A stretch of DNA of 64,000 bases from a virus (taxonomy: Duplodnaviria > Caudoviricetes), in the IMG/VR virus record IMGVR_UViG_3300028888_001628, positions 1-64,000 of that record; one strand, 5' to 3'. The notes beneath the pieces were generated by a model that was not told where the DNA came from, made no database searches, and saw only the letters and a program-made list of their open reading frames with translations. A program made the position numbers and the translations under genes. How positions within the stretch are numbered: the stretch's first letter is position 1; each line of letters opens with the position of its first letter. Below, piece after piece: positions 1 through 41,462 of this stretch.

Positions 1-287
1 CTGCTATGTTTAAAACAATTCCAGCGTGCTATCATTACAAAGAGCCTCGATTATATACCATGAGAGAGTGGTTAACCACAATGGGAATGCCATACGATTT
101 TATTATGTATGGCGATGTTAAAAACTATTTTTATAAAATTGGTCAGAATGTTCCAGCTAGAACAGCTGAATTCATTATTAGTGAAGCTGTAAATGTAATA
201 GAAAATTGGGATTCAGTCGATCGTATTGTAGATAAGAAAAATGTACTATTTGACAATATTAAACAAAAAATTACTTCATTAAGTTAG
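1..287 (+). CDS. C5-cytosine DNA methyltransferase, C-terminal part (5' truncated)
   Basis: RLYTMREW..MGMPYDF and KIGQNVP resemble motifs IX and X of C5 MTases. Confidence 0.75.
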   Translation, partial: AMFKTIPACYHYKEPRLYTMREWLTTMGMPYDFIMYGDVKNYFYKIGQNVPARTAEFIISEAVNVIENWDSVDRIVDKKNVLFDNIKQKITSLS

Positions 288-309
288 TTAAATAGTTTAC
301 TTTAGAATA

Positions 310-339
310 AACCGTAGTTATTATAACTACGGTTATTTT
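310..339 (+). terminator. Intrinsic terminator-like hairpin
   Basis: AACCGTAGTTA/TAACTACGGTT inverted repeat followed by T-rich tail. Confidence 0.6.
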
Positions 340-361
340 ATGACTTAGTCAGAGGGATCAT

Positions 362-763
362 ATGAATACTTATAAGCGATTGATCGTTGATTTAGACAAT
401 ACAATTTCATTTACAATAAATGGTGATTATATAAACAGCAAACCTATTAAGCCAACTATTGATTTGCTTAAAAGATATCACGATGATGGCTGGGAAATTG
501 TAATAAATTCATCTAGAAATATGAGAACATATGATTGCAATGTTGGTAAAATAAATATATACACATTACCAAATATTGTAAATTGGTTAAATAAATATGA
601 AGTCCCTTATGATGAAATAATAGTAGGAAAGCCGTGGTGTGGCTATGATGGGTTTTACATAGACGATAAAGCTATTAGACCATCTGAATTTCATAGCATG
701 AATCTAGATGAAATTAATGATCTTCTTGAAAAAGAAAGATCTTATATAGAGAGTGTAGTATGA
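362..763 (+). CDS. HAD phosphatase, BcbF/EcbF capsule-biosynthesis type
   Basis: DLDNT motif I, SSRNMRTY, VPYDEIIVGKPWCG..FYIDDKAIRPSEF. Confidence 0.85.
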   Translation: MNTYKRLIVDLDNTISFTINGDYINSKPIKPTIDLLKRYHDDGWEIVINSSRNMRTYDCNVGKINIYTLPNIVNWLNKYEVPYDEIIVGKPWCGYDGFYIDDKAIRPSEFHSMNLDEINDLLEKERSYIESVV

Positions 764-2298
764 TCTTAATTACATCAGCCAGTTACGTAAATTATGGGTT
801 AGCTTCAGAGTTTGGCAATATTCCGCCATGTATGTTGCCAGTCCAAAATAGACGATTATATGAACATCAGTATAATTTAATAGAGCGCTTACAAGATAAA
901 TTAGATAGAAGAGAAAAAGTTTATCTGTCATTACCAGCAGATTATGAAATACCTTACTTTGATGAATTAAACTTTTATCGGCTTGGTATTAACATAATTA
1001 AGATTAGCAGCAAGCTGTCATTACTTTCATCTATTATTGAAGCTTTAGAGTACGCTGATGACACAGAAACTGTTCGTATATTATTCGGTGATACTTTGTT
1101 TGCTGAACTCCCTACTGACTTAGATGTGTACCTTTATGATGATAGTAACGATGATTACAAATGGGATTACTTAGATTCAAACAACGTTTACTCCGGTTAC
1201 TTTGCATTTTCAAATGTTAAAGAACTTCGATCATCTTTGAATTACATACATCATAATGATAATAGTGATAATTTTACTAATGTTATTAGTAAATATAAAC
1301 TTAATGGTCTTAAAGCTTTAGGTTGGTTGGATTTCGGCCTACAGAATACTTATTACCGCTCAACCTCAAAATTCACAACGCAACGTTCATTCAATTCACT
1401 ATACATAAAGAGATTTTCAGTTAAAAAATGCAGTAAAGATCTCAAGAAGATGCAGGCTGAGTATAATTGGTTCACTAATATACCAACTGATATGAAGCAT
1501 TATATTCCAGCAGTATTAAACACGTGTGAAAACGGTTATGAGATTGAGTACTTTTATTTAAGTTCATTGTCCAATATGTATGTGTATGGTGAGAGCTCAT
1601 TTCATACATGGGTTAACATTATTAATGCTTGCTGTGAGTATCTTACGTCTGAATATTCACATTCTGGAGATGAGTCAGTAGCTCATACAAATAACAAGTT
1701 ATTTACTGAAAAGACAAAAAACCGTATTGATAAGTATGCTAGTGATACAGGGTTTGATTTAAATAAACCAATTAAGATAAACAACATCACTGTACCATCT
1801 GTAAATGACATTATAAATGAACTAGATAGCTATATAGAAAAAGATTCTGTTCGTTATTCATCTATTATGCACGGAGATTTTTGCTTTAGTAATACTTTAT
1901 ATGATTTTAAATCGCAATCCGTTAAAGTAATTGATCCACGAGGTATATCAGCAGATGGAAAAGAAATTACGATATATGGTGATTTACGGTACGATGTTGC
2001 CAAACTTGCACATTCAATTATAGGTAAATATGACTTTATAATTGCGGGTAGGTTTGATTACAAAGAAGCTTCACCGTACGATATAACATTTAATGTTTAT
2101 TGCAATAAAAACTGCAGAATTTATAAATACTTTTTAGATCGTATGCTTTCATTATATAATATATCTGCAAATACTATTTACTCTATTATGATAAATCTAT
2201 TTCTTTCTATGCTACCATTGCACAGTGATGATAGATTACGTCAGAAAGCACTTTTCGTGAATGCGTTAAAACTTTATTTGGAGTATAAATCTTTATGA
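760..2298 (+). CDS. Nucleotidyltransferase-like domain fused to APH/kinase-fold domain (BcbG-like)
   Basis: N-term EFGNIPPCMLP, FGDTL, WLDFG; C-term HGDFCFSN and IDPRG kinase motifs. Confidence 0.75.
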   Translation: MILITSASYVNYGLASEFGNIPPCMLPVQNRRLYEHQYNLIERLQDKLDRREKVYLSLPADYEIPYFDELNFYRLGINIIKISSKLSLLSSIIEALEYADDTETVRILFGDTLFAELPTDLDVYLYDDSNDDYKWDYLDSNNVYSGYFAFSNVKELRSSLNYIHHNDNSDNFTNVISKYKLNGLKALGWLDFGLQNTYYRSTSKFTTQRSFNSLYIKRFSVKKCSKDLKKMQAEYNWFTNIPTDMKHYIPAVLNTCENGYEIEYFYLSSLSNMYVYGESSFHTWVNIINACCEYLTSEYSHSGDESVAHTNNKLFTEKTKNRIDKYASDTGFDLNKPIKINNITVPSVNDIINELDSYIEKDSVRYSSIMHGDFCFSNTLYDFKSQSVKVIDPRGISADGKEITIYGDLRYDVAKLAHSIIGKYDFIIAGRFDYKEASPYDITFNVYCNKNCRIYKYFLDRMLSLYNISANTIYSIMINLFLSMLPLHSDDRLRQKALFVNALKLYLEYKSL

Positions 2299-3038
2299 GA
2301 AAGCTACACGTTATAATGCCTATGGCAGGAGAAGGCTCTCGTTTTAAACAAGTTGGTATCGATACACCAAAACCTTTAATAAAAGCAAATGGTGTTCCAT
2401 TCTTTGTTAGAGCGCTGTCATCTATAAAAGATTCATTTGATGATTTAAAAGTTACGTGTATAATTCAATCAAAACATGATACAGATCATTGTTTAAGTAA
2501 TGGTATTAAAAGTGAGTTTCCATTTGCAAATATAGTAGTGTTACCAAAATTAACAAATGGTGCAGTTGAGACTTGTTTAGCTGCTAAGCCTTTTATGTGT
2601 AAAGACGATGCTATTCTTATTATGGATTGTGATCTAGAGTGGAAGTCTAATAAATATATATTAGCTATAAAAAGCCTTCTTAGAAGTGATTCTAGTACTA
2701 TTGGTGGGCTGCTACTTTCGTTTGATTCAGATAAACCAAGATATAGTTATGCTAAGGCTGACAAAGATAATGTTGTTATAGAAACTGCTGAGAAATCTGT
2801 AATATCAAATAATGCACTAGTTGGCGCATATTACTTTAATACTGTAGATGATTTTATCTTATCTTCAGATAAGCTAGTAACTAAAAATAAATTATCAGAT
2901 ATTAAAGAATACTATATTTCATTATTATATAATTATTTAATTCAGAATGGGCGCACAGTTATATTATATAAAGTCGACACTCTACACTCATTCGGTACAC
3001 CAGAGGAACTTAGCGAGTATGAACATTCTTTTAATTAA
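2295..3038 (+). CDS. Sugar nucleotidyltransferase (BcbE-like)
   Basis: MPMAGEGSRF..PKPLI, GAVET, DCD, EYYIS, FGTPEEL. Confidence 0.85.
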   Translation: MRKLHVIMPMAGEGSRFKQVGIDTPKPLIKANGVPFFVRALSSIKDSFDDLKVTCIIQSKHDTDHCLSNGIKSEFPFANIVVLPKLTNGAVETCLAAKPFMCKDDAILIMDCDLEWKSNKYILAIKSLLRSDSSTIGGLLLSFDSDKPRYSYAKADKDNVVIETAEKSVISNNALVGAYYFNTVDDFILSSDKLVTKNKLSDIKEYYISLLYNYLIQNGRTVILYKVDTLHSFGTPEELSEYEHSFN

Positions 3039-4197
3039 AACTGACACTATAAGATTTAAAGAATGCCAATCAAAAGAAATAACATTTGGAGGTGTTGATT
3101 TAGCAGCTTTATTTTTTGGCTCGTTAGTAAAACTTTATCAAGAACATACGTTTTATTTAGTTGGATCAAATGATATTTCTATAGCTAATATGCCAAAAAA
3201 TCTCGTCTCTTTAGAAGAGCCTATTAAAAATAAATCGAAAGAGTCAGGTAAAGTAAAATATAAAGCTGGAATAGATTACTGTAATGAAAATAATATTTCA
3301 TTCGATAAAGCTCTTATTTGGTACGGCCCATCGCTTGCTATAGTTCAATATGATGACAACTATCTTACGATGAAAGGAACTGTAAGAAGACCTTTACAGT
3401 CACAAACAAGATACAGTGATGGCTTAGCTATGGCTACGCAAATGCACGTTCCAACTTACTATATATTAAATGACGCTAGACAGCTTGGGTGTTTACCACT
3501 TGATGTTGATGATCCAAAGATGGTAATTTCACAGATGAACGGTGTGATTCATAATAAAGCTTATTTACCAAATAGTAAGTCTGATTTGTTTATTAGGGAT
3601 ATAGATGTAACATACAAACCGATAGAATTTTTATGGCTTGCTTCTAAAAATAAAATTGATTGGCGTAACTTTAAAAAAGATAATAAGTTTATTATAGTAT
3701 GCAATGGTATGCCATACAGATATAAATACATAAAAGAATGGATTTTAAAATATCTTCCAAATGAGGTTATTTACGGTAAATGGACTAGTCCAAAATTTAT
3801 TTGGGAAGCAATTGAGCGCGATGGTTATACAGATAACTTTAAATTTAAGCCAATGGTAACCATGGAAGATAAAATGTTTTCCACAAGATATACTTTGGTA
3901 ATTCCACTAGAAAAAGAATACCCATCATTTGTTACACAAAAAGCAATATCTATGGTTTACTATGGAATTATTCCATTCTGGTGTATATATGATTATGATA
4001 GTGACAATTTATATAAAGACTTTCCTGACTACATTAAGGTAAGATCTCCTGAAGAGTTTTACGCTAAAATGGATGAGTTAGATTCAAATGAAGAATTATA
4101 CACTGAGATTAAGAATCAGTTATATGATTTATTGTTAGACAAGTACTTTACAATTGACTTTGTAAAAGAAATATTCGATGATGTTATTTCAGACTAA
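3019..4197 (+). CDS. GT-B glycosyltransferase, T4 beta-glucosyltransferase-like (putative DNA glycosyltransferase)
   Basis: ILNDARQL resembles BGT LFTDIRL; FVTQK...YDSD resembles BGT FITLR...FDTK; adjacent to dCMP-modifying enzyme; start moved to ATG 3019. Confidence 0.6.
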   Translation: MNILLIKTDTIRFKECQSKEITFGGVDLAALFFGSLVKLYQEHTFYLVGSNDISIANMPKNLVSLEEPIKNKSKESGKVKYKAGIDYCNENNISFDKALIWYGPSLAIVQYDDNYLTMKGTVRRPLQSQTRYSDGLAMATQMHVPTYYILNDARQLGCLPLDVDDPKMVISQMNGVIHNKAYLPNSKSDLFIRDIDVTYKPIEFLWLASKNKIDWRNFKKDNKFIIVCNGMPYRYKYIKEWILKYLPNEVIYGKWTSPKFIWEAIERDGYTDNFKFKPMVTMEDKMFSTRYTLVIPLEKEYPSFVTQKAISMVYYGIIPFWCIYDYDSDNLYKDFPDYIKVRSPEEFYAKMDELDSNEELYTEIKNQLYDLLLDKYFTIDFVKEIFDDVISD

Positions 4198-4241
4198 ATA
4201 GCTTGTATATTATAATAAACTAACTAATCTGGAGTAACACT

Positions 4242-4934
4242 ATGAATAGTATTAAAACAACCGAAGACATTAGAAAAGAGCTTGTTAGTCTGTATAGCGA
4301 TAAGTGTTTTCGTACAGGCAAATATGGAATGACTGTAGAAATTCAAAATGTGCATTTTCTTGCTGATAAAGACTGGATTATTCGCAAACCAAATTATGAT
4401 TATGCAAAAAGAGAGATTCAATGGTATGAGTCACAGTCTCTGTATGTCAAAGATATTCCTGGTGATGTACCAAAGATTTGGCAAATGTGTGCTGATAAAG
4501 ATGGGAAGATAAATTCTAACTATGGATGGTGCATTTGGTCTGAAGAAAACGGTAGTCAGTTTAAACACTGTGTAGAAAGATTATTAGATGATCATTGTAC
4601 TCGTGAAGCATGTATGATTTACAATAGACCTTCTATGCAAGTTGATTGTAACAAGAACGATATGCATGATTTCATGTGTACATTCTCTACTCAACATTTT
4701 TTAAATGAAATTGATGAGAATAAATTTAGATTAGATTACACAGTTTTTCAGAGAAGCTGCGATGCGTGCTTTGGGTATAATAACGATAAACTCTGGCATG
4801 ATTACGTTCAATCTTATTTATTAGAAGCTCTACGGTCAAAAGGTCTTAACGTTAAATCAGGAAATATGATTTACAACTGTGGATCACTTCATGTTTACGA
4901 ACGACATTTTAAACATTTACAGTTAATAGATTAA
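4242..4934 (+). CDS. dCMP hydroxymethylase-like thymidylate synthase homolog (T4 gp42 family)
   Basis: INSNYG, DFMCT catalytic Cys, RSCDACFGYNND with Asp at the dCMP-specificity position, SLHVYERHF. Confidence 0.85.
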   Translation: MNSIKTTEDIRKELVSLYSDKCFRTGKYGMTVEIQNVHFLADKDWIIRKPNYDYAKREIQWYESQSLYVKDIPGDVPKIWQMCADKDGKINSNYGWCIWSEENGSQFKHCVERLLDDHCTREACMIYNRPSMQVDCNKNDMHDFMCTFSTQHFLNEIDENKFRLDYTVFQRSCDACFGYNNDKLWHDYVQSYLLEALRSKGLNVKSGNMIYNCGSLHVYERHFKHLQLID

Positions 4935-4942
4935 TTTACTTT

Positions 4943-4977
4943 AAATCACCAGAAAAAAATTTTTTCTGGTGATTTTT
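4943..4977 (+). terminator. Intrinsic terminator
   Basis: AAATCACCAGAAAAA/TTTTTCTGGTGATTT plus T tail. Confidence 0.7.
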
Positions 4978-4978
4978 G

Positions 4979-5007
4979 TTTACATATGAAATAGAAAGTT
5001 TTATAGT
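4979..5007 (+). promoter_or_regulatory. Sigma70-like promoter of second sugar module
   Basis: TTTACA-17 nt-TATAGT. Confidence 0.6.
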
Positions 5008-5052
5008 TATATTTGTAAGTTGGGATTACCTATTTTATTGAGAGGTAAGCAA

Positions 5053-5955
5053 ATGATTTCACAAAATAATCTTGGAATTAATCTTGGTTTTGCGAATAAT
5101 CGTTTTCCAGAACCAGAAGTATGGACTGACATAGTTGCTAATAAGCTTGACTTACATAAAGTTCAGTTTGTAGCTGACATTCTTAATCCAACTCTAAAGC
5201 TATACAATAAAGATTACTATGACAGTCAGATAAATAAAACTGTTGAATGTATAGCTAAACACAGCATTAGTGTTACTTCTATAATGACTTCATCATTTAC
5301 TAGAGTAAATCATTTCGCTCATCCGGATAAAGAATACAAAGATGCCTGGTTAGCATGGTTTAATGATTTTCTTGACATGGGTAAAAAGCTTGGGGCTAAA
5401 TCGGCTGGATCTCATTTTGGTATTTTAACAGTTGAGTCTTTGGTTAATAAAGATAAGTTATACAAAGATGCTATACATTATTGGGCTGAACTATCTATTA
5501 TAGCAAGAGATTTAAATTACGACTTTCTTTTCTTTGAACCAATGTCTGTTGATAGAGAATTTGGTAATACTATTGAGAAGACAGAACAAATACTAAGTGA
5601 TTTAAATGAAGTATCAGCTATTCCATTTAAGATTTGTTTAGATGTCGGTCATGCGCCTCATCCATCTCAAAGAGACTATAAAGAGTGGATGAAAAGATTA
5701 GCTAAAGACAGTCCAATAATTCATTTACAACAGACTACTTTAAATAATTCAAATCACTCTCCTTTCACATCTATCTACAACACTAATGGAATTATAGATC
5801 CGTATTGGATTATTAATTTACTAAATGAATCTGGACTATCTCCAGAATTGGATTTTGAGATTGGCTTTAGAGAAAAAGAAGAAATTGAGCATACAGTAAT
5901 AAATGACTTAGTTGAATCGGCTAACTATTGGAAACAGTGCATAGGTGGAAACTAA
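5053..5955 (+). CDS. Xylose-isomerase-like TIM-barrel sugar-phosphate epimerase (EryC-like)
   Basis: GINLGFANNRFPEP, EPM, LDVGH, IHLQQ metal ligands; ATG 5053 follows GAGG. Confidence 0.7.
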   Translation: MISQNNLGINLGFANNRFPEPEVWTDIVANKLDLHKVQFVADILNPTLKLYNKDYYDSQINKTVECIAKHSISVTSIMTSSFTRVNHFAHPDKEYKDAWLAWFNDFLDMGKKLGAKSAGSHFGILTVESLVNKDKLYKDAIHYWAELSIIARDLNYDFLFFEPMSVDREFGNTIEKTEQILSDLNEVSAIPFKICLDVGHAPHPSQRDYKEWMKRLAKDSPIIHLQQTTLNNSNHSPFTSIYNTNGIIDPYWIINLLNESGLSPELDFEIGFREKEEIEHTVINDLVESANYWKQCIGGN

Positions 5956-5956
5956 T

Positions 5957-6910
5957 ATGAAAGCAATTCAAATTGAAAAAGATTTTAATAATTCATCTAT
6001 TGTTGATTTAGATGAACCCACTGTAGAAGAAAATCAATTGTTATTAAACGTAAAAGCAGTAGGCATCTGTCAATCAGATATTGCTAGAGTATTTAATCAA
6101 TCTGCATATTATTATCCTATTATACTAGGACATGAGTTCTCTGGCATAGTTAATGGAAATAAATCAACAGTGTTTCCTATTATACCATGTAGAAAGTGTG
6201 CTGAATGTAGTTTGGGAAATTATGCACAGTGTTCTAATTATTCGTACTATGGCTCTAGACAAAGTGGTGGGATGCAGGAACGAATAGCCGTTAGAAAATG
6301 GAATATCATAAGTGATGATAAACTTTCTTGCGAAGAATTAGCTCTTATAGAACCAAGTGCAGTTGCTATGAATGCTATTCGTTTCATTGATAAATACTGT
6401 AGATCCGTTTTAATAAATGGATGTGGTTTTATCGCTTTAGTAGCTGCGCAAATACTTACACATGTTGGTAAAACAGTGTATATTAGAAATAGAAATCAGG
6501 AGAAGTTAAAGTTTGCAGTTAAGAACTTTGATTTAATTGAATATAAAGATCAGCCATTTGACTGTGCTATTGATTTTGTTTCTAACTCTGCGTCAATGAA
6601 TTTCTTAATTGAAAAAGTAAAATCGCATGGTTCAATCATAGCGGTAGGAAATCCTTCAAATGAAGTAACTTTTGATAAAGCTAATTATTCAAAAGTTTTG
6701 CGAAAAGAACTAAACATTCGTGGGATTTGGAATTCACATCGTGAAGATTGGCTTGATGTTATTAAACTTATTAGTGATCGTAGTATTGATGTGAATAAAC
6801 TAATTACACATAAATACGATTATACTGATTTTAAGAAAGCATTTGAGAAAATAAGAGATAATCAAACAAATTACAACGAGCTGATTATTAAGAGTGTTAT
6901 TTTATTTTAA
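5957..6910 (+). CDS. Zn-dependent polyol(-phosphate) dehydrogenase, GatD-like
   Basis: GICQSD, LGHEFSG, CxxCxxC(x7)C, EPSAV. Confidence 0.85.
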   Translation: MKAIQIEKDFNNSSIVDLDEPTVEENQLLLNVKAVGICQSDIARVFNQSAYYYPIILGHEFSGIVNGNKSTVFPIIPCRKCAECSLGNYAQCSNYSYYGSRQSGGMQERIAVRKWNIISDDKLSCEELALIEPSAVAMNAIRFIDKYCRSVLINGCGFIALVAAQILTHVGKTVYIRNRNQEKLKFAVKNFDLIEYKDQPFDCAIDFVSNSASMNFLIEKVKSHGSIIAVGNPSNEVTFDKANYSKVLRKELNIRGIWNSHREDWLDVIKLISDRSIDVNKLITHKYDYTDFKKAFEKIRDNQTNYNELIIKSVILF

Positions 6911-6933
6911 CCACTATCTATATAGGTGTAAGA

Positions 6934-7956
6934 ATGATTCAGGCTGTATTAAAAGAACTCGGTAAGATTGAACTAAAGCGCGTTTCTCGTAAAAAGCTTA
7001 AGCCAGGTGAGATACGACTTAAGGTTATTTCGTGTGCTATATGCGGATCAGATATTCGTATTTATAATTACGGTAATTCTAGAGTAAATTTACCGCACGT
7101 GATAGGTCATGAAGTAGTAGGTAAGATAATTGAAGTACCTGATGATTGTAATCTTACTGTTGGTGATTATTGCTGCTTTGGAGCAGATCTTCCATGTGGT
7201 GACTCTAATTGTAAATATTGTAAAGCTGGTGACTTTGGATCATGTGATAAAAATTTAGCAATTGGTTACCAATTTGATGGTGGATTTGCTGAAGAAATGA
7301 TTATTCCAAAAGTATGTTATAGCTATGGAGCTGCTTTTGGAGTTATACCAGTAGTAGGCAGTGATGTATATAAATACTCATTGGTTGAGCCTTTAGCATG
7401 TGCTATTCATGGAGTTGAGCCAATGAATATTAAAACATCAGATGATGTTTTAATATTTGGTGGTGGACCAATTGGATTAATGATTGGTGATATATGTTTA
7501 AATTTAGAAAAGTGTAATTCTGTTACTATTGTGGAATTATCACCAGCTAGAGTAGATCTAATTCATAAGCTGTTTCCAAAGTTTAATGTTACAAGTGATT
7601 ATAAAACACTCGATAAAGAGTTTGATGTAATATTTACAGCTAATTCAGCGTCAGATTGTCATAGAATAGCTGTTGATATGGCTGCTAAAAATGCACGTAT
7701 AAATTACTTTGGTGGATTAGGCATTAAAGAGCTTGTACCTATTGACACTAATAAAATTCATTATAAACAGTTAATGATTACTGGAACACACGGTTCACGA
7801 AAATGCGACTTTGATAAAGCTTATACATGCGTTAAGTCGAATTGGTTAGACATGAACAAATATATTACATCGGTGTTTTCTTTAAAAGACATCAATAAAG
7901 CCTTTGATGCTGCTAAAGACTTATGTAACCTTAAGATTATTATAAAGGGTGAGTAG
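6934..7956 (+). CDS. Zn-dependent polyol dehydrogenase, iditol/sorbitol DH-like
   Basis: ICGSD, GHEVVG, structural Zn cysteines, EPLAC, GGGPIG. Confidence 0.85.
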   Translation: MIQAVLKELGKIELKRVSRKKLKPGEIRLKVISCAICGSDIRIYNYGNSRVNLPHVIGHEVVGKIIEVPDDCNLTVGDYCCFGADLPCGDSNCKYCKAGDFGSCDKNLAIGYQFDGGFAEEMIIPKVCYSYGAAFGVIPVVGSDVYKYSLVEPLACAIHGVEPMNIKTSDDVLIFGGGPIGLMIGDICLNLEKCNSVTIVELSPARVDLIHKLFPKFNVTSDYKTLDKEFDVIFTANSASDCHRIAVDMAAKNARINYFGGLGIKELVPIDTNKIHYKQLMITGTHGSRKCDFDKAYTCVKSNWLDMNKYITSVFSLKDINKAFDAAKDLCNLKIIIKGE

Positions 7957-7958
7957 CT

Positions 7959-8594
7959 ATGTTTTCAAGTTCTATAATGTGTGTAAATCAGCTTGAATTA
8001 AAAAGCTATATAGATTTGTTTAATAAATATAAATTTGGAATGATTCACATTGACATTATGGACGGTAAATTTGTAAATAATATAATGTACGGTCCATACA
8101 TTATTAATGATCTTAGAAAGTATACAGATTTAAAATTTGACATTCACCTAATGATAGATAAACCAGAATATAAATTAGGTATGTTTAATTTTAATAGTAA
8201 TGATAGAGTGGCTATTCATTACGAATCTACAAAGAATTTAATGCAGACTATCTTAATGTATAAAGAAAAAGTGGGTGAGTTGTTTATTGCAATAAATCCA
8301 GCTACTCCAGTGTTTTTACTTGAAGAAGTTATTGGTATTATTGATGGCATATTAGTTATGTGCGTAAATCCAGGGTTTGCTTCACAGGATATGATTTTTA
8401 ATATACCAAACAAGATTAAGAATATTCATAAATTATATCCTGAATTAAAGATTGAAGTAGATGGTCATATTACGCCTGATTATTACTATCAATTCAAAGA
8501 TATGGGCGTAGAAGATTTTGTATTAGGGACTTCATTTATTTTTAAGAATGGTTTAATTGGGACTGAATCTATTATAAAAGGGTTATCTGTATAA
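7959..8594 (+). CDS. Ketose-phosphate 3-epimerase (Rpe/AlsE family)
   Basis: HIDIMDG, DIHLM, INPATP, VNPGF, EVDG; N-term SIMC resembles AlsE SLMC. Confidence 0.85.
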   Translation: MFSSSIMCVNQLELKSYIDLFNKYKFGMIHIDIMDGKFVNNIMYGPYIINDLRKYTDLKFDIHLMIDKPEYKLGMFNFNSNDRVAIHYESTKNLMQTILMYKEKVGELFIAINPATPVFLLEEVIGIIDGILVMCVNPGFASQDMIFNIPNKIKNIHKLYPELKIEVDGHITPDYYYQFKDMGVEDFVLGTSFIFKNGLIGTESIIKGLSV

Positions 8595-10150
8595 TGAGTG
8601 CGTACCAAGTAATTATTACATTAGGTGGGACTGGTAAACGATTTGCTGATGCGGGCTATGAGTTACCAAAGTATATGCTTCCTATTAGCATCTTTGATTC
8701 TAATTATAAGGTAATTGATTTAGTAACAAAGATGTATGAAGACAATGATACTGATATTTTATTTTTGTGTAATAAAGATCATATTGAAAAGTATAACCTA
8801 AAACAATTACTTGGTAAATATGGTACAGTGATACCAGTTGTACCTGGTAAAGGGCCAGGTGATGCTATATTGCAGGCTAAAAATTTTATCGATGTTAATA
8901 AACCAACGTTTGTACAGTATTGCGATACTTTTCAGCCATGGGATTTACAAAAGATTAAGAACTATATAGAAAAGTATAACCCAGATTCAGCAGTGGTTGT
9001 TACGAATGAGAAGTGTCCTTCTGTATATGACGGAACATTGTATGGAAGAGTAAAAATAAAAAATAATCTTATAAAAGATATTAAAGAAAAAGCTGAGCCA
9101 GAGTATTCAGACTATCTTGGCTGTGGTACATTTTACTTTAGAAGTGGTCTTGTATTACTTAAATATATTGAAATACAAGATAAAGATAAAGATAAGTATT
9201 ATTTAAACGGTGAGTCATATATTAATTGTACAATAAAGGCAATGCTAGATGATTGTCAAAATGTGATTCCTATAAATGTAACTGACTATCTAAATCTTGG
9301 TGTACCACGTGACTATGAAGAATATATGTATTGGCAAAGACTTGAGTGTAAGTATGCCAATAAAATTACTCATAAAGGACCAATACTCCAAGATTCTACC
9401 ATTATTATGCCTGCCGCTGGTTTAGGTTCAAGATTTAAAAATGTATATAATAAACCTAAGCCATTAATTGATGTTAATAATTCTCCGATGTACAAAGAGG
9501 CTATTAATCTATCTTTTAATCCGGAGAATGTTGTTATTGTTACTAGAAAGGATTTAGAATTTTATAAAGAATTCAAAGATTCTGCTGAAGGTAATGATTA
9601 CACTTTTATAGGTCTTGATTCTATAACTGATGGTCAAGCTATTACAGTTAAAGAGGGATTAAAAGAAATTACACATGGGCCTATTATTATAAATTCGTGT
9701 GATCAGGGAATTTTATATGATGAGGTTAGATTTAATAATATTTATGATTCATCAGATATTATAGTATGCGGTATTAAGAACTATCAACCAGCTTTACGAA
9801 AAGTGAATTCTTTTTCATGGATTAAATGTGATGGAGATAGTGTTATTGAAGTTACGTCAAAAAGATGTGACGGAGATCCAAAAGAAAGTTTAGCTTTTGT
9901 AAGCTGTTTATTGTATAAAAATAAACACATTTTAGAAGATAGTATAAATGCTCTTATTAAAAGAGGAGCTAAAACTAATGGTGAATATTATATAGATGAA
10001 TCCATAAATGATAGTATTTCACTTGGGTATAAAGTAAAAGTTCTTGAGATAGATGCTTATCTTAACTGGGGAACTCCAGAAGAATTAGAACTATATCAAT
10101 GGTGGAATCGATTTTTTACTAAAACAGGTTTGTATGATTATTTGGCATAG
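8594..10150 (+). CDS. Tandem two-domain sugar nucleotidyltransferase
   Basis: GGTGKRF..PKY...LGVPRDY and PAAGLGSRF..PKPLI...WGTPEEL. Confidence 0.85.
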   Translation: MSAYQVIITLGGTGKRFADAGYELPKYMLPISIFDSNYKVIDLVTKMYEDNDTDILFLCNKDHIEKYNLKQLLGKYGTVIPVVPGKGPGDAILQAKNFIDVNKPTFVQYCDTFQPWDLQKIKNYIEKYNPDSAVVVTNEKCPSVYDGTLYGRVKIKNNLIKDIKEKAEPEYSDYLGCGTFYFRSGLVLLKYIEIQDKDKDKYYLNGESYINCTIKAMLDDCQNVIPINVTDYLNLGVPRDYEEYMYWQRLECKYANKITHKGPILQDSTIIMPAAGLGSRFKNVYNKPKPLIDVNNSPMYKEAINLSFNPENVVIVTRKDLEFYKEFKDSAEGNDYTFIGLDSITDGQAITVKEGLKEITHGPIIINSCDQGILYDEVRFNNIYDSSDIIVCGIKNYQPALRKVNSFSWIKCDGDSVIEVTSKRCDGDPKESLAFVSCLLYKNKHILEDSINALIKRGAKTNGEYYIDESINDSISLGYKVKVLEIDAYLNWGTPEELELYQWWNRFFTKTGLYDYLA

Positions 10151-10694
10151 AGTAAATACTATCGATGAATTAAAAGAAATCCCACTTGATGATGGAGTTG
10201 AGATTGATATACGATCTATTAAAGGTAGACCATATTTATCACACTTCATTGATCAAGATGGGGTTCTGTTTGAAGAATGGATAAAATATTATCACCTTAA
10301 AGGTACGCTAGTACTAAATGTAAAAGAAGAGGGGCTAGAAAGCATTTTAATAGACATATTAAATAAATATCAAATAACAAATTATGTATTCTTAGATGAG
10401 CCTTTCTGGTACTTACTGAATGCTTCTAGAAAGCTAAATAACAAAAACTTTGCAATAAGAGTGTCTAAGTTTGAATCGGTTGATACTGCTATCAAATCAA
10501 GGAAGCTTTCTGATTGGGTATGGTACGACTACTTTGATGATTATGTATGTGTAGAAGATATTAAGAAACTCATAAATAATGGCTTTAAAGTTATAATGCC
10601 ATCATGTGAACTTGTAAATTCTAAAACAGATTTTACTAATACACTAGAAAGAAATAACGTTCATTTATGGGCTATTTGTAAAGATAGGAGCTAG
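10134..10694 (+). CDS. GDPD/PI-PLC-like phosphodiesterase
   Basis: HRVN, GVEIDIR, SH, LNVKEEG, RVSKFE. Confidence 0.7.
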   Translation: MIIWHRVNTIDELKEIPLDDGVEIDIRSIKGRPYLSHFIDQDGVLFEEWIKYYHLKGTLVLNVKEEGLESILIDILNKYQITNYVFLDEPFWYLLNASRKLNNKNFAIRVSKFESVDTAIKSRKLSDWVWYDYFDDYVCVEDIKKLINNGFKVIMPSCELVNSKTDFTNTLERNNVHLWAICKDRS

Positions 10695-10698
10695 TTAT

Positions 10699-11583
10699 AT
10701 GAAGTCAGCTGAAGCGGTATTTATGTTACATGGTGATGTTAATAGAAAGTCTACTCTATTAAATATTATAAATGATAATGCTTACATAGTAGTTTGGCCA
10801 GATACTTCTAAAGAAGATGCTGTAAAGAATTTAGTTGGCTATGATCCGGCTAAACATACAATTATTAATATTGGAAATAAAGATAAGCTGTATATTGGAA
10901 GAAATAACATTATAGATTATTGTAAAGAGCATGGTATTAAACGATTTTGGATGGTTGATGATGACGTTTTTGATTTTAGATTAGGTGGCCCATCACAAGA
11001 ATTTAAAGAAAAAGTACGTCAGAATGGTAAAACCACTTTGATGAATGTAGAGTTTGATGATGATGTAGGTTTGGGCGGGATGACAATGCGCGGTGTAATG
11101 TTCAACAAAGCTGTTGATAAACCGCAATTCGGTAAGAGATTTATATGGGCTGTAGTATTTATCGATTTAGATTATAATAATATACGTTATTCTGTTGAGG
11201 GATATGACGATATCGATATGCAGCTAGAATGTGTTAAAAATGGGATTAAAATTCAGACTGTAAATTGGTTAGGTCACGCAAAGCCACAGTGGACAGTTAA
11301 GAAATCACTCAACTCACAATTAGATAAAATAAACTATAATAACTATATCATTTATAAAAAGTGGGGTGATACAGTTAAGATTGATGTTTATTATGATAAA
11401 AATAAGACTAAATACTTTAGAGTGCATACAAAGTACCCATACAATATAAAAAGCACAGATACTACAATATTTGCGACAGACACACTTGAATCATTTGTTA
11501 AATCATTAGAAGATGCTTTTAATAGTCATCCAGAGTCTTTTCACGTGTGTGGCTTACCTCATTTAAAAAAGAAAGATACTTAG
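10699..11583 (+). CDS. GT-A glycosyltransferase of the TET/JBP-associated (GREB1-like) / T-even second glucosyltransferase type
   Basis: GRNNIIDY...FWMVDDD and DDIDMQL motifs. Confidence 0.65.
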   Translation: MKSAEAVFMLHGDVNRKSTLLNIINDNAYIVVWPDTSKEDAVKNLVGYDPAKHTIINIGNKDKLYIGRNNIIDYCKEHGIKRFWMVDDDVFDFRLGGPSQEFKEKVRQNGKTTLMNVEFDDDVGLGGMTMRGVMFNKAVDKPQFGKRFIWAVVFIDLDYNNIRYSVEGYDDIDMQLECVKNGIKIQTVNWLGHAKPQWTVKKSLNSQLDKINYNNYIIYKKWGDTVKIDVYYDKNKTKYFRVHTKYPYNIKSTDTTIFATDTLESFVKSLEDAFNSHPESFHVCGLPHLKKKDT

Positions 11584-12066: not shown

Positions 12067-13323
12067 TTAAAAAATTAGTGATCTTAAAAAGCTTTCTTTA
12101 AGTATTTCACATCCCTCTGGATTTTTCTCTGGGCGCCATTGCTCGATCACAGAGTGTGTTAATCGCAAACTTCTTGCTGAAACATTTTGTCCTTTAACAG
12201 TAGCAACCTTTCCATAATAATCAGGGTTAAGTTTTACAGATCCGTCATCAGCTATAATAGTAGCATCTTCTTTAATATAATCAGACACATTAGAGCAAGT
12301 TGCGATAGGATGTGTTACGATTGTACCGTCATCTTTTTCCATCTTAATAGAGAATACAAAACCAACAACCATATTAGCATTACGTGTATCATCATTACCA
12401 ACTACATAGTCAGTAACAAATGCGTCAATATCACTCGCAATGGAATCAGTTGTAGATCTTTTTACTTTTACACAATCAATAGTTCTTGAAGAAGTTGCAT
12501 GATAAACAGCATTTTTATTTTTAAGAACAATACCCTCACCATTGTTTGAGACAATACGATCATAAAAATCATGTTTTGCTTCTGGGTATTTATCTGTGTT
12601 TTCTACAACTGGGTTAATGTCACAACAGAATCCGCTTTTATTTAACATATTCGAAAGTTTTTTTGCATGATTGTGACGTACAGTCCATACTGAATCAATA
12701 AGTCTATCTTTATCATGCAGACAGTCAAACACGATAAATTTAAGTGGTGATCTCTTTTGTACTTCAATAGAATCAGCCGGGTTTAATGCTAATATTGCAG
12801 TTGTCGATTGCAGTTGTGTAAGACACCTAACGTTTGTTTCAGCTTCAGGGTCTGTACTAATAACTTCACAATCTAAAACGAAATTATATGCATAGTCAAA
12901 ATCTTTTGCAGTAACTAACACAGTGTCTGTATAATCCTGTGGAAGATAATCCTCAACTGAATTATTTCTACTATAGAAATGAAACTTTTTCTCTGAAGCA
13001 TCCCATACAATAAGCATCCTACAACCGTCGATCTTTTCTTCGGCAATCCAATCTTTTGAATCCCATACAAGCTTCTGTTGCTCTGGTTTAAGATCTTTAA
13101 TTCGTCTACATAATTGAGGTGTCTCTATTGATAGCATGAACTTTAAAGGCCATGGGATATTCTCAATAGACCCAAACTTTTCTTTAATAAAGTAATTACG
13201 AAGTGCAATTACGTAATCATCTTTCATTAGCTTTCGCCCAGCTGGTGTAACGGTGATACCTAATGAGTTACATTGATTCTGTAAATAATCAATTCTACGA
13301 CCACAAGAAATTGACATTAGCAA
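12067..13323 (-). CDS. ATP-dependent DNA ligase
   Basis: EEKIDGCR, LDCE, FD, EGIVLK, KVK, C-terminal OB domain. Confidence 0.92.
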   Translation of the reverse strand: MLMSISCGRRIDYLQNQCNSLGITVTPAGRKLMKDDYVIALRNYFIKEKFGSIENIPWPLKFMLSIETPQLCRRIKDLKPEQQKLVWDSKDWIAEEKIDGCRMLIVWDASEKKFHFYSRNNSVEDYLPQDYTDTVLVTAKDFDYAYNFVLDCEVISTDPEAETNVRCLTQLQSTTAILALNPADSIEVQKRSPLKFIVFDCLHDKDRLIDSVWTVRHNHAKKLSNMLNKSGFCCDINPVVENTDKYPEAKHDFYDRIVSNNGEGIVLKNKNAVYHATSSRTIDCVKVKRSTTDSIASDIDAFVTDYVVGNDDTRNANMVVGFVFSIKMEKDDGTIVTHPIATCSNVSDYIKEDATIIADDGSVKLNPDYYGKVATVKGQNVSARSLRLTHSVIEQWRPEKNPEGCEILKESFLRSLIF

Positions 13324-37020: not shown

Positions 37021-38268
37021 ATGAATGATAAAGAAGTAGAGAGTATAATATTAGCGGAACAGAGCAGACAGAAAAACACTCTTAGAATGATAGCATCTGA
37101 AAGTGAACCGTCTGACGATGTGCTAGAATGCCTTGGGTCATGTTTTACTTCAAAATATAGTGAGGGGTACCCAAATGGAACTAACAACCCAGCCGGCTTT
37201 CGTTACTACCAAGGACAAGAGAACACTAATAAGATTGAGAATCTTTGCATAGAACGTGCTAGAGAAGCTTTTAATTTACCTGACGATTGGCACGTTAACG
37301 TACAAGCGTTAAGTGGGTCACCTGCAAATATTGCTGTCTATACTGCGCTATGTAATATTGGTGATAAAGTTGTTGGCTTAGGGCTTAATTCTGGAGGGCA
37401 TTTAAGTCATGGTCATAAAGTTAATTTTACTGGAAAGAATTATGAAGTTCACCAGTTCGACGTTGATAAAGACACTCAACTAATTAACTATGACAAATTA
37501 AATGACTTTGTTTATAACGCAAGACCTAAGATGATGATTATTGGTACAACTGCATATAGTCGCGTTCTTGATTGGAAAAGATTAAGAGACATTGCAAATA
37601 AAGCAGGTTGTTACTTTGTAGCAGATGTTGCTCATGTTGCAGGTTTAATTGCAGGTGGTGCTTATCCGTCACCGGTCCCGTATGCAGATGTAGTTACTAT
37701 GACTACGCATAAAACACTGCGTGGACCTAGAGGCGCGCTTATATTTTGTAGAAATGAATTTGCTAAAAAGATCGATAGAGCTGTTTTCCCGGGCAACTCT
37801 GGTGGGCCACACATGAATAATATAGCTGGGATTGCAGTTGCTCTTAAAGAAGCTACTACAGAAGACTTTAAAGATTATGCACACCAGGTTGTTAAAAATG
37901 CAAAGTGCCTCGCCAATATTTTATGTAATATTTATGGGTTTAATATTATCTCAGGTGGGACAGACTCTCATTTGATGGTTGTAGATGTTACAAATAAAAA
38001 TATTGATGGGAAAACTGCAGCAATAGCACTTGAAAAAGCTGGCATAGAGTGTTCTTATTCTACTATCCCGTATGATCCTAATCCACCAGCAAATCCATCT
38101 GGGATTAGATTAGGTACTTCAATTTTAACTACACGTGGAATGAAGGAAGATGATATGAGCGTAGTTGCAGCTTATATCAATAAATCATTGGATAATTATA
38201 ATGATGATCAAGTCTTAGAGACTATAAAAGATTCTGTATCTAAATTTGTAAAACAATTTAATAAGTGA
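37021..38268 (+). CDS. glyA: Serine hydroxymethyltransferase
   Basis: KYSEGYP, GGHLSHG, DVAH, TTHKTLRGPRG, SGIRLGT. Confidence 0.97.
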   Translation: MNDKEVESIILAEQSRQKNTLRMIASESEPSDDVLECLGSCFTSKYSEGYPNGTNNPAGFRYYQGQENTNKIENLCIERAREAFNLPDDWHVNVQALSGSPANIAVYTALCNIGDKVVGLGLNSGGHLSHGHKVNFTGKNYEVHQFDVDKDTQLINYDKLNDFVYNARPKMMIIGTTAYSRVLDWKRLRDIANKAGCYFVADVAHVAGLIAGGAYPSPVPYADVVTMTTHKTLRGPRGALIFCRNEFAKKIDRAVFPGNSGGPHMNNIAGIAVALKEATTEDFKDYAHQVVKNAKCLANILCNIYGFNIISGGTDSHLMVVDVTNKNIDGKTAAIALEKAGIECSYSTIPYDPNPPANPSGIRLGTSILTTRGMKEDDMSVVAAYINKSLDNYNDDQVLETIKDSVSKFVKQFNK

Positions 38269-39980: not shown

Positions 39981-41462
39981 GTGATGCCAGCAAGATTAAA
40001 CTTAGACGAGCTCAAAAAAGAGTATATATGTAAGATTTTTGGATGGCTCACTGTACTTGATGTGATTAGAACAGACGCTGGTGCGTACCTTTTTAGATGC
40101 AAATGCAAGTGTGGCGCACTAAAAGATGTTGATAAAAAGCACGTTTTACATGGTAGCATAAAAAGCTGTGGTTGTTATCAAAAGTCTAAAGAAAAAGCCG
40201 ATAAGTATTCTAAATGGTGTAAAGAAAATCCTGATAAGGTAAAGGCAAAAGCAGAAAAAGCAAAAGAATACTTTAAAGAACACCCTGATCAACTTATAGA
40301 GCAAGGTAAATCTCATTCTGAGTGGATAAAAAGTAATGACAGTGAAAGATATAGACTTGCTAATTGGCATAAAGAAAATTCAGAGCTGTCTGCAAAAGCT
40401 TCCGCAAAAAGATCTCAGTGGAGTAAGGATCATCCAGACCTTCAAAAGAAAATAAATGAAAAAGTATCAAAGGCTATTACAGATGATGAAAGAAAGTCGC
40501 GCAGTGAAAGAAGACGTAGATTTTATATAGAGCGGCCTGATGATGCCGCTGAAATGAATAAACGTATAAGTGAAACTGTAAAACAGTTTTGGAAAGACAA
40601 CCCTGACGTAATGGCTAACATTACACAAAAGAGAGCTTTGCTGCTAAAAGAAAACCCAGAAATAATAGCAGGAATATCAGAGTCTGTTAAACAAGCATTT
40701 GCTAAAAAACGGTCAGAAATAGACTTTAGCGGCATCATTGACATTATACATCCTGATTATGTTAGCGATTTACTAAGTGGAAACATAAAATGCGATAGTA
40801 AAGTAATGACGAAATGCCCTAGGTGTAATAATTATGAAACACATCCATTTGGTGCAATATTTAGTCTCAGACAATCTGCTATAAGAAGTGAATTACTATG
40901 TAAAAAATGTGCGTACTCAATTACATCGTCTAAAGCTGAAGGTGAGATAGCTGAATATATTTCATCATTCTACAAAGGTGATTGTGTAAGAAACATACGT
41001 AGCATTATACCACCGCAGGAACTTGACTTATATTATCCTGAAAAGAAAATTGCTATTGAGTTCAATGGTGATTATTGGCATGATGAAAATCATAAACCTA
41101 AAGACTATCACTATAACAAGTTCAAAGCGTGTTTAGAAAAAGGAATCTTACTAGTTTCAATTTTTGAACATGATTGGAACACAAGAAAAGATGTCATTAA
41201 ACAGTACTTAATAGACTTATTTAATGGTACAGAAAACTGTCTATCATTTGTAAATGAAAAATATGTAAATAATAACTATCCACTGCCAAATATGTGTGAT
41301 AAATCATTATTAAGTGTCATTAGCAATAGCTATATTTATGATAAAGATGACGTAAAAGTATTCACATGTGGCTATTCTGAAGTTGGTGATAAACAATGGG
41401 AATTATTTAAAGAAAAAATAAAGTCATACAAAGACAGCGTGATTAAAGTAACAATAGTGTAA
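39981..41462 (+). mobile_element. Free-standing homing endonuclease-like gene (helical repeats, Zn finger, PD-(D/E)xK/Vsr-like nuclease)
   Basis: CKCKCG..KSCGC, WxKENP repeats, CPRC..CKKC, ELDLY..IAIEFNGDYWH. Confidence 0.8.

Follow-up and report, generated by a model that had tools for sequence, protein, structure and literature searches.

A phage operon joining a capsule-type sugar-activation trio to a BGT-like glycosyltransferase and a dCMP hydroxymethylase: a candidate route to fructofuranosylated DNA

Glycosylation of phage DNA decides its visibility to restriction, CRISPR and type IV defence systems. To our knowledge, phage cytosines have been found to bear glucose, gentiobiose, arabinose or galactose/glucose. 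We examined a 64,000-nucleotide stretch of a Caudoviricetes virus (hereafter the window), which is the first 64 kb of the 155,974-bp IMG/VR virus record IMGVR_UViG_3300028888_001628. Near its start lies an operon in which three genes resembling a bacterial capsule cassette (a phosphatase, a kinase fusion and a nucleotidyltransferase; the trio) precede a glycosyltransferase (GT) with the fold of T4 BGT and a dCMP hydroxymethylase of the T4 gp42 type. The system is of a known kind, glycosylated 5-hydroxymethylcytosine (5hmC) with a phage-encoded donor pathway, here equipped with a capsule-type trio. Our preferred reading, to which we assign a probability of roughly 0.5, is that the operon makes glycosylated 5hmC DNA with a self-made donor by converting fructose 6-phosphate (Fru6P) to an NDP-fructofuranose, as would be expected from analogy with a characterized arabinofuranose pathway. 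The features of the operon are as follows.

310-334, plus strand: hairpin resembling a terminator (11-bp stem, T tail), at the end of the C5-methylase-like gene upstream; 5′ bound of the operon
362-763, plus strand: HAD phosphatase of the BcbF/EcbF subfamily, 133 aa (TIGR01689 and motifs)
760-2298, plus strand: KfoE/BcbE-type fusion, 512 aa, with a nucleotidyltransferase-fold N-terminal domain and an APH-like kinase (homology, motifs and model)
2295-3038, plus strand: sugar-1-phosphate nucleotidyltransferase, 247 aa (PF00483 and PDB 4evw)
3019-4197, plus strand: GT-B glycosyltransferase, 392 aa (AlphaFold2 model, T4 BGT fold match)
4242-4934, plus strand: dCMP hydroxymethylase, T4 gp42 type, 230 aa (PDB 1b49 match)
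4943-4975, plus strand: hairpin resembling a terminator (15-bp stem, T tail); 3′ bound of the five-gene unit

The five genes are closely packed on one strand, and the two hairpins are the sole plus-strand terminator-like hairpins flanking them. Stop and start codons overlap as ATGA at 760-763 (phosphatase and kinase fusion) and at 2295-2298 (kinase fusion and nucleotidyltransferase), the GT start at 3019 overlaps the nucleotidyltransferase stop by 20 nt, and the hydroxymethylase gene begins 44 nt past the GT gene with its own ribosome-binding site. The interval 362-4934 is one operon. An earlier reading of this locus (the original prediction) had described four same-strand genes within 362-4197 that overlap one another; these are present as described, and the unit reaches beyond them to the hydroxymethylase gene as its fifth member. 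A promoter scan returned no excess of sites over shuffled sequence (29 against 34). The record is approximately 68% complete, and the window has a G+C content of 30%. Metagenome contigs of 200-300 kb carry near-identical proteins and a megablast search of window positions 1-10000 against the phage collection gave no match, which together point to a jumbo phage lineage without a cultured relative. The host of this phage probably belongs to the phylum Bacteroidota.

Assignment of the first gene rests on a curated model. On NCBIfam TIGR01689, the model for EcbF-BcbF capsule biosynthesis phosphatases, the protein scores 199.1 bits (residues 5-127) against a curated whole-protein cut-off of 162 bits. 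On the same model the phosphatases of the Escherichia coli K4-type and O20 loci reach 193.4 and 196.8 bits, both passing the cut-off, and that of a close phage relative (contig L088) reaches 202 bits, while a distant phage version (L090) scores 130, the HAD of Pseudoalteromonas phage XG4 94.6 and the Bas46 homologue of AfhF 49.3. The catalytic motifs DLDNT, INSSR, GKP and IDD are readable in the translation of 362-763. Identity amounts to 57% with the phosphatase of the K4-type locus and 66-74% with phosphatases of Bacteroidales trios, as against 32% (E 4.7e-12) with the Bas46 AfhF homologue. By analogy, we propose that this BcbF-type enzyme takes the distal phosphate off a sugar bisphosphate. 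The PHROG family that it matches (phrog_1238) carries the label 'phosphoheptose isomerase', which is likely an annotation error.

The second gene encodes a fusion of two domains. Residues 1-205 were modelled (pLDDT 80) with a sugar-1-phosphate nucleotidyltransferase fold (Z 15.9 to RmlA, PDB 4ecm, and 15.2 to 4evw), and the C-terminal approximately 310 residues hold the kinase motifs HGDxCFSN and IDPRG. The Gly-rich GxGxR loop of the N-terminal domain is replaced by TSASY, in a loop that is poorly ordered in the model, and because the canonical loop is lacking this domain is probably not an active nucleotidyltransferase. The earlier description of the protein as a nucleotidyltransferase-kinase therefore holds for its architecture, with fold and kinase motifs both recognizable, but not for the N-terminal domain as a working nucleotidyltransferase. 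Residues K223, E234, H371, D373, N378 and D392 are invariant in an alignment of 12 sequences. The 512-aa protein has no Pfam match, including none to a nucleotidyltransferase family, and neither single-sequence nor profile searches of PDB gave anything meaningful, while phrog_24015 is matched at 1.3e-102. The family is very large, with >3000 matches. Between the fusion and its 522-aa counterpart in the E. coli K4-type locus, residues 1-510 align with 1-518 at 38% identity (E 6e-111), which is almost the whole length, and identity with Bacteroidales homologues is 45-47%; the C-terminal 300 residues of the fusion match the kinase half of the Bas46 AfhE homologue (25% identity, E 2.5e-12). We propose, again by analogy, that the fusion is an anomeric kinase acting on a sugar phosphate.

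The separate 247-aa protein fits the role of the working nucleotidyltransferase because it keeps an intact MAGEGSRF loop, and from its sequence it is likely to be the NDP-sugar-forming enzyme. It matches PF00483 (3.2e-4) and PDB 4evw, a Vibrio cholerae pyrophosphorylase (3.6e-13), and resembles the trio nucleotidyltransferase of the E. coli O20 locus (27%, E 3e-23). In RefSeq E. coli genomes the trio nucleotidyltransferase is named 'glycosyltransferase family 2 protein' (contig L093 11122-11847 for the K4-type locus; L086 9987-10742 for the O20 locus), likely another annotation error.

Fructofuranose branches are borne by the capsules of Pasteurella multocida types B and E, Haemophilus influenzae type e and E. 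coli K4. We examined where the trio occurs in bacteria using the best 80 loci from a scan of genome contigs, which were drawn from Bacteroidota, Gamma-, Alpha- and Betaproteobacteria and other taxa and included none from Pasteurella. A BcbF-like HAD lies directly upstream of the kinase fusion in 71 of the 75 evaluable loci and a nucleotidyltransferase directly downstream in 68 of 76, amid glycosyltransferases, flippases and acyltransferases; no homologue of the phage GT was found in any of the 80. A quick maximum-likelihood tree of the kinase domain placed the phage proteins in a clade (support 100) within a Bacteroidota clade (support 96) and the E. coli proteins in a gammaproteobacterial clade. 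The window protein and the 522-aa protein of the K4-type locus fall in one group in this tree, apart from proteins of the AfhE type, which lie far outside on long branches. Nesting of the phage kinases among those of Bacteroidota indicates a bacterial origin of the trio, the host phylum being the most likely source.

Among E. coli genomes the trio was found in two locus types, a group-2 kps capsule locus (L093) and the O20 galF-gnd cluster (L086). The first runs kpsMT, galE, a 546-aa open reading frame (ORF), a 686-aa GT2, an insertion sequence, a 477-aa ORF, the HAD, the 522-aa ORF, a 241-aa ORF, ugd and a GT2, and continues with kpsS, kpsC, kpsU (kdsB), kpsD, kpsE and kpsF. The 241-aa ORF, although named a family 2 glycosyltransferase, is really a nucleotidyltransferase, and it is intact in 18 of 20 such loci. 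This order appears to match that of kfoA-G of the K4 fructosylated-chondroitin locus, with the 522-aa ORF at the presumed position of kfoE; the record itself names no kfo gene. The phage trio has the same protein order as this K4 set (equivalents in P. multocida: bcbF, bcbE and bcbG), again with overlapping starts. The two differ in that the K4 product decorates a capsule through a different transferase, whereas the partners of the phage trio are a dCMP hydroxymethylase and a GT of BGT-like fold.

Genetic evidence connects these genes with fructose. In P. multocida type B, mutation of bcbE or of bcbG abolishes the fructose branch of the capsule (PMC13552107), and the passage of PMC8858990 that cites Liu 2014 reports that deletion of kfoE in E. 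coli K4 yields unfructosylated chondroitin. For Campylobacter jejuni HS1 a different, 849-aa transferase (HS1.08) is given, in a gene table that lists no phosphatase or kinase. On homology, the trio is a capsule cassette genetically tied to fructose branches and captured by a phage. This agrees with the original prediction on three counts: resemblance to BcbE, BcbF and BcbG (a TIGR01689 score above the cut-off, full-length similarity to the K4-type protein and conserved order), uptake of a polysaccharide cassette into a phage (the bacterial loci and the phage clade inside Bacteroidota) and a link to fructose branches, which is to be found in the two sources just cited.

The fifth gene indicates what the sugar would be attached to. 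Its product matches T4 dCMP hydroxymethylase (PDB 1b49, E 7.5e-57, residues 5-224), with the catalytic Cys in a DFMCT motif aligned with DFMCT of T4 and an NND stretch, holding the Asp by which cytosine is selected, aligned with T4 RND. In the signature RSCD...NND, Asp occupies the equivalents of both ThyA-169 and ThyA-177, whereas Bas46 has RSQN. The synthases of RB69-type phages that form 5-hydroxycytosine (5hoC) have Asn at the ThyA-169 position (PMC13326640). As the enzyme is gp42-like with Asp at this position, the predicted acceptor is 5hmC and not 5hoC; 5hoC, which had been put forward beside hydroxymethylcytosine as a possible acceptor, was ruled out by the same residue.

Although a start at 2947 had been considered for the GT, it was ruled out, since ATG 3019 (MNILLIK, preceded by GAGGA) coincides with the start of all database homologues; ATG 3019 is most likely the real start, giving 392 aa. 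The AlphaFold2 model of this protein (pLDDT 93.7) finds its best solved match in T4 BGT (1j39; Z 20.6, 317 residues aligned, 16% identity), and the matches to 1j39, 1c3j and 1qkj together span Z 20.0-20.6, rmsd 4.0-4.4 and 314-319 aligned residues at 15-16% identity. Next come T4 AGT (Z 16.6) and a DNA GT of phage HY126 (15.9), the latter among generic GT4 enzymes, and Foldseek agrees on the fold. The proposal of a BGT-like enzyme is thereby borne out at the level of fold, with no similarity detected at the level of sequence: searches of PDB with phmmer and with a 29-sequence profile gave no BGT, and the GT itself has no Pfam match, although 13 of 29 family members show a weak match to the GT10 C-terminal domain. 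The phage GT thus forms a sequence family separate from T4 BGT, with which it shares a fold and a partner hydroxymethylase homologous to gp42. A further difference lies in the donor, which T4 draws from the host as UDP-glucose and for which this phage has a pathway of its own.

The GT family numbers at least 545 cluster representatives at E <= 0.001 and is viral in every context examined. Members stand beside gp42-type homologues of thymidylate synthase (TS) in the window, L087, L088, L089, XG4 and L095, and in phage contigs they also neighbour dCMP deaminase, dUTPase and C5-methylase-like genes. Kinase/phosphatase/nucleotidyltransferase modules directly precede them in three architectures, one in the window and L088, one in L090 and one in XG4, L087 and L089: in L088 and L090 the nucleotidyltransferase adjoins the GT, and in XG4 a fused nucleotidyltransferase-kinase is followed by the GT. 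From these contexts, this looks like a family of hydroxymethylcytosine-DNA glycosyltransferases in which the donor varies with the module in front, and we propose that the protein encoded at 3019-4197 is a 5hmC-DNA glycosyltransferase using the NDP-sugar of its own cassette.

Two alternatives to this proposal were considered. The cassette may not act on DNA at all and may instead serve glycosylation of virion proteins or remodelling of host surface polysaccharide during infection, given that the bacterial trio always serves surface polysaccharides and that sharing the GT-B fold is no proof of a DNA acceptor. We regard this as very improbable: a dCMP hydroxymethylase gene belongs to the same operon, the top fold matches of the GT are the T4 DNA glucosyltransferases (BGT, then AGT), its family repeatedly neighbours the TS homologues and the deaminase, dUTPase and C5-methylase-like genes named above, and the locus is without flippase, polymerase or lipid-carrier genes. 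Alternatively, the GT may glycosylate 5hmC from a nucleotide sugar of the host, such as UDP-glucose, leaving the product of the trio to another transferase (for example the TAGT-like GT at 10699-11583) or to a second-sugar step. This would be consistent with the use of UDP-glucose by T4 BGT, the closest fold, with the family member in L095 that has no nearby donor module, with a methylase gene that parts the KfoE-type pair from the GT in L087 and L089, and with the presence of two GTs and two donor modules within the same 11 kb. It is nevertheless unlikely, because the GT start and nucleotidyltransferase stop overlap by 20 nt, the adjacency of nucleotidyltransferase and GT recurs in L088 and L090 (and as the fused form before the GT in XG4), and the second module has a double nucleotidyltransferase of its own beside the TAGT-like GT, a pairing kept in L088.

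If the cassette does feed the GT, the pathway may be set out as follows. The gp42-type enzyme would make 5-hydroxymethyl-dCMP, which would then be built into DNA. The KfoE-type kinase would phosphorylate a furanose phosphate of the host at its anomeric hydroxyl, most likely converting D-fructose 6-phosphate to fructose 2,6-bisphosphate; the BcbF-type HAD would remove the distal phosphate to leave fructose 2-phosphate; the 247-aa nucleotidyltransferase would convert this to NDP-fructofuranose; and the BGT-like GT-B would attach the sugar to 5hmC in DNA, at its hydroxymethyl group. AfhE and AfhF serve as the analogy from which we infer the sequence of reactions; the pairing of the cassette donor with the GT is deduced from gene coupling, and the sugar itself from homology to fructose-linked capsule genes. 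For fructofuranose as the sugar the chances appear about even, and they are slightly poorer for the full statement that the phage DNA carries 5-(fructofuranosyloxymethyl)cytosine. D-Fructose is D-arabino-hexulose, and Fru6P in its furanose form is arabinose 5-phosphate (Ara5P) with a hydroxymethyl group added on the anomeric carbon. Because of this relationship, Fru6P to fructose 2,6-bisphosphate, fructose 2-phosphate and NDP-fructofuranose would be the natural counterpart of the reported steps by which AfhE phosphorylates Ara5P at C1 to arabinose 1,5-bisphosphate, AfhF removes the 5-phosphate and the nucleotidyltransferase domain of AfhE forms UDP-D-arabinofuranose (PMC13326640).

That pathway, known from RB69-like phages, HY126 and DLP3 and leading to arabinosyl-5hoC (PMC13326640), is the closest comparison for the phage operon. 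In both, an anomeric kinase, a HAD phosphatase and a nucleotidyltransferase feed a DNA GT beside a TS homologue, and the kinase and HAD of the window are distant homologues of AfhE and AfhF. The two differ in several respects. AfhE has a canonical nucleotidyltransferase as its N-terminal domain and no separate nucleotidyltransferase, whereas the window has a degenerate N-terminal domain and a separate enzyme; the AfhE-like proteins of XG4 and L087 match NTP_transf_3. The AfhE/AfhF pathway includes a SIS arabinose-5-phosphate isomerase, and no match to the SIS isomerase family (PF01380) was found in the 155,974-bp, approximately 68% complete record, although a host enzyme could serve. Finally, the base in the AfhE/AfhF pathway is 5hoC made by a D169N synthase, whereas the synthase of the window has Asp. 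Two relatives are informative in this context, since the clusters of L087 and L089 each contain both a SIS plus AfhE-type module and a KfoE-type kinase with its nucleotidyltransferase; this co-occurrence suggests two different products and that the KfoE-type module is not a mere duplicate of the arabinose pathway.

These comparisons bear on the main competitor of fructofuranose, which keeps the same logic and the same DNA target but assumes another furanose: D-arabinofuranose from host KdsD-derived Ara5P, D-ribofuranose from ribose 5-phosphate, D-xylulofuranose or ribulofuranose from pentulose 5-phosphates, or the product of the second module. AfhE and AfhF, the sole biochemically characterized relatives, make UDP-D-arabinofuranose, and the phage kinase and phosphatase are homologous to their Bas46 counterparts at the E values given above. 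An E. coli O20 cluster has the trio and ribofuranose has been reported for O20, the phage nucleotidyltransferase has diverged strongly from the bacterial ones (27-30%), and Rpe and isomerase-like genes lie nearby in the second module. The TIGR01689 scores point the other way, with the window phosphatase at 199 bits alongside 193 for the fructose-linked K4 enzyme and 49 for the Bas46 AfhF homologue, as do the KfoE-type architecture, the relatives that hold both module types side by side and the lack of a SIS isomerase match in the incomplete record. As for ribofuranose, its presence in other E. coli O antigens is ascribed to a phosphoribosyltransferase, and their clusters are without activation genes for it (2019 review). 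We therefore consider another furanose possible but clearly less probable than fructofuranose. Its arabinose version, in the manner of RB69, had first been prompted by the Bas46 matches to UDP-arabinose synthesis and was downgraded in view of the gap in TIGR01689 scores, the architecture and the coexistence of modules in relatives; the product of the cassette is probably not arabinose.

Several observations weigh against fructofuranosylation of 5hmC as we read it. The link to fructose is a genetic one only, and the literature labels KfoE a 'fructosyltransferase' and not a kinase. Searches for papers on an activated fructofuranose donor (UDP-, CDP-, GDP- or ADP-fructose, or fructose 2-phosphate) found none, and a literature search on fructose in phage DNA hypermodification likewise found nothing. 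Equivalence of the 512-aa and 247-aa proteins to BcbE and BcbG rests on the BcbF model match and on comparison with K4. Specificity may vary within a family of the size reported above, in which the phage kinase has 38% identity with the K4 protein, and the 27-30% identity of the phage nucleotidyltransferase to those of bacterial trios is a marked departure from the K4 set. The sole published O20 polysaccharide contains ribofuranose and galactose, but is said not to fit the O20 cluster (2019 review); because of this misfit, the cluster is uninformative on the sugar. The GT fold does not fix the donor, since family members also occur with another donor module (L094) or with none (L095). Within 1-7 kb downstream come a second donor module and a TAGT-like GT (10699-11583), so that there are two GTs and two donors to be matched. 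Finally, no dCTPase, dUTPase or MazG family member was found in the 68% complete record, which bears on whether cytosine is fully replaced.

Were the preferred reading true, fructofuranose (or another capsule-type furanose) would be a chemically distinct, acid-labile mark on DNA, and the enzymes producing such DNA would form a defined set. In the case of fructofuranose it would be the first ketose, and the first ketofuranoside labile to acid, to be seen on DNA. The operon sets three candidate donor enzymes beside a single transferase whose acceptor is simple and can be assayed. The four-gene set would then also be the easiest system in which to study fructofuranose activation in the capsules of E. 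coli K4, P. multocida B and E and H. influenzae e. The relatives show, in addition, a swap-in/swap-out hot spot at which sugar-activation modules are exchanged in front of BGT-like DNA glycosyltransferases; donor modules have evidently been swapped around one GT family.

Such modules are seen in several forms. In the related jumbo phages L087 (2317-8646) and L089 (5077-11197), a GT paralogue of 459 aa, a SIS isomerase, Rpe, an AfhE-type nucleotidyltransferase-kinase and a KdsC-like phosphatase accompany a GT of 394-398 aa. A third kind of donor module occurs in L094, a short metagenome contig (1826-4549), where a family member follows a PRK-family kinase and a HAD hydrolase. In Ralstonia phage phiRSL1 (L092 5992-12789), ORF236 encodes a fusion of the KfoE type (30% identity, 97% of the query covered) and ORF235 a nucleotidyltransferase; a homologue of dUMP hydroxymethyltransferase lies 4 kb away, accompanied by genes for an APS kinase and a sulfotransferase-like protein, and a pathway for sulfated or glycosylated hydroxymethyluracil is possible at this locus.

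In E. coli O20:H12 the galF-gnd cluster (L086 8030-10742; O20/O137-type) opens with an intact HAD/kinase/nucleotidyltransferase trio, and the 2019 review lists no activation genes for this cluster. The true product of the O20 cluster may hold an overlooked acid-labile furanose.

Downstream of the hairpin at 4943-4975, the second sugar module of the window (5020-11583) encodes a xylose-isomerase-like TIM barrel, two Zn-dependent polyol/alcohol dehydrogenases, an Rpe/AlsE-like 3-epimerase (under both curated cut-offs), a 518-aa double nucleotidyltransferase, a 186-aa protein and a TAGT-family GT-A. The same seven-gene block sits upstream of the trio and its GT in L088. This module is probably the source of another DNA sugar or alditol, distinct from the first.

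A gene resembling C5-cytosine DNA methyltransferases was found next to the GT family or to donor modules in every phage contig examined: L087 (926-2230 and 8667-9938), L088 (5940-7217), L089 (3698-4990 and 11194-12468), L091 (5363-6580), L095 (8329-9543) and the window (3-287), where the record begins inside the gene and only its C-terminal end is present. Most large ORFs of the window had no PHROG match. Its other genes include an ATP-dependent DNA ligase (12067-13323, minus strand), a 415-aa methyltransferase (37021-38268; phrog_9968, E 5e-129) and an HNH/homing endonuclease (39981-41462).

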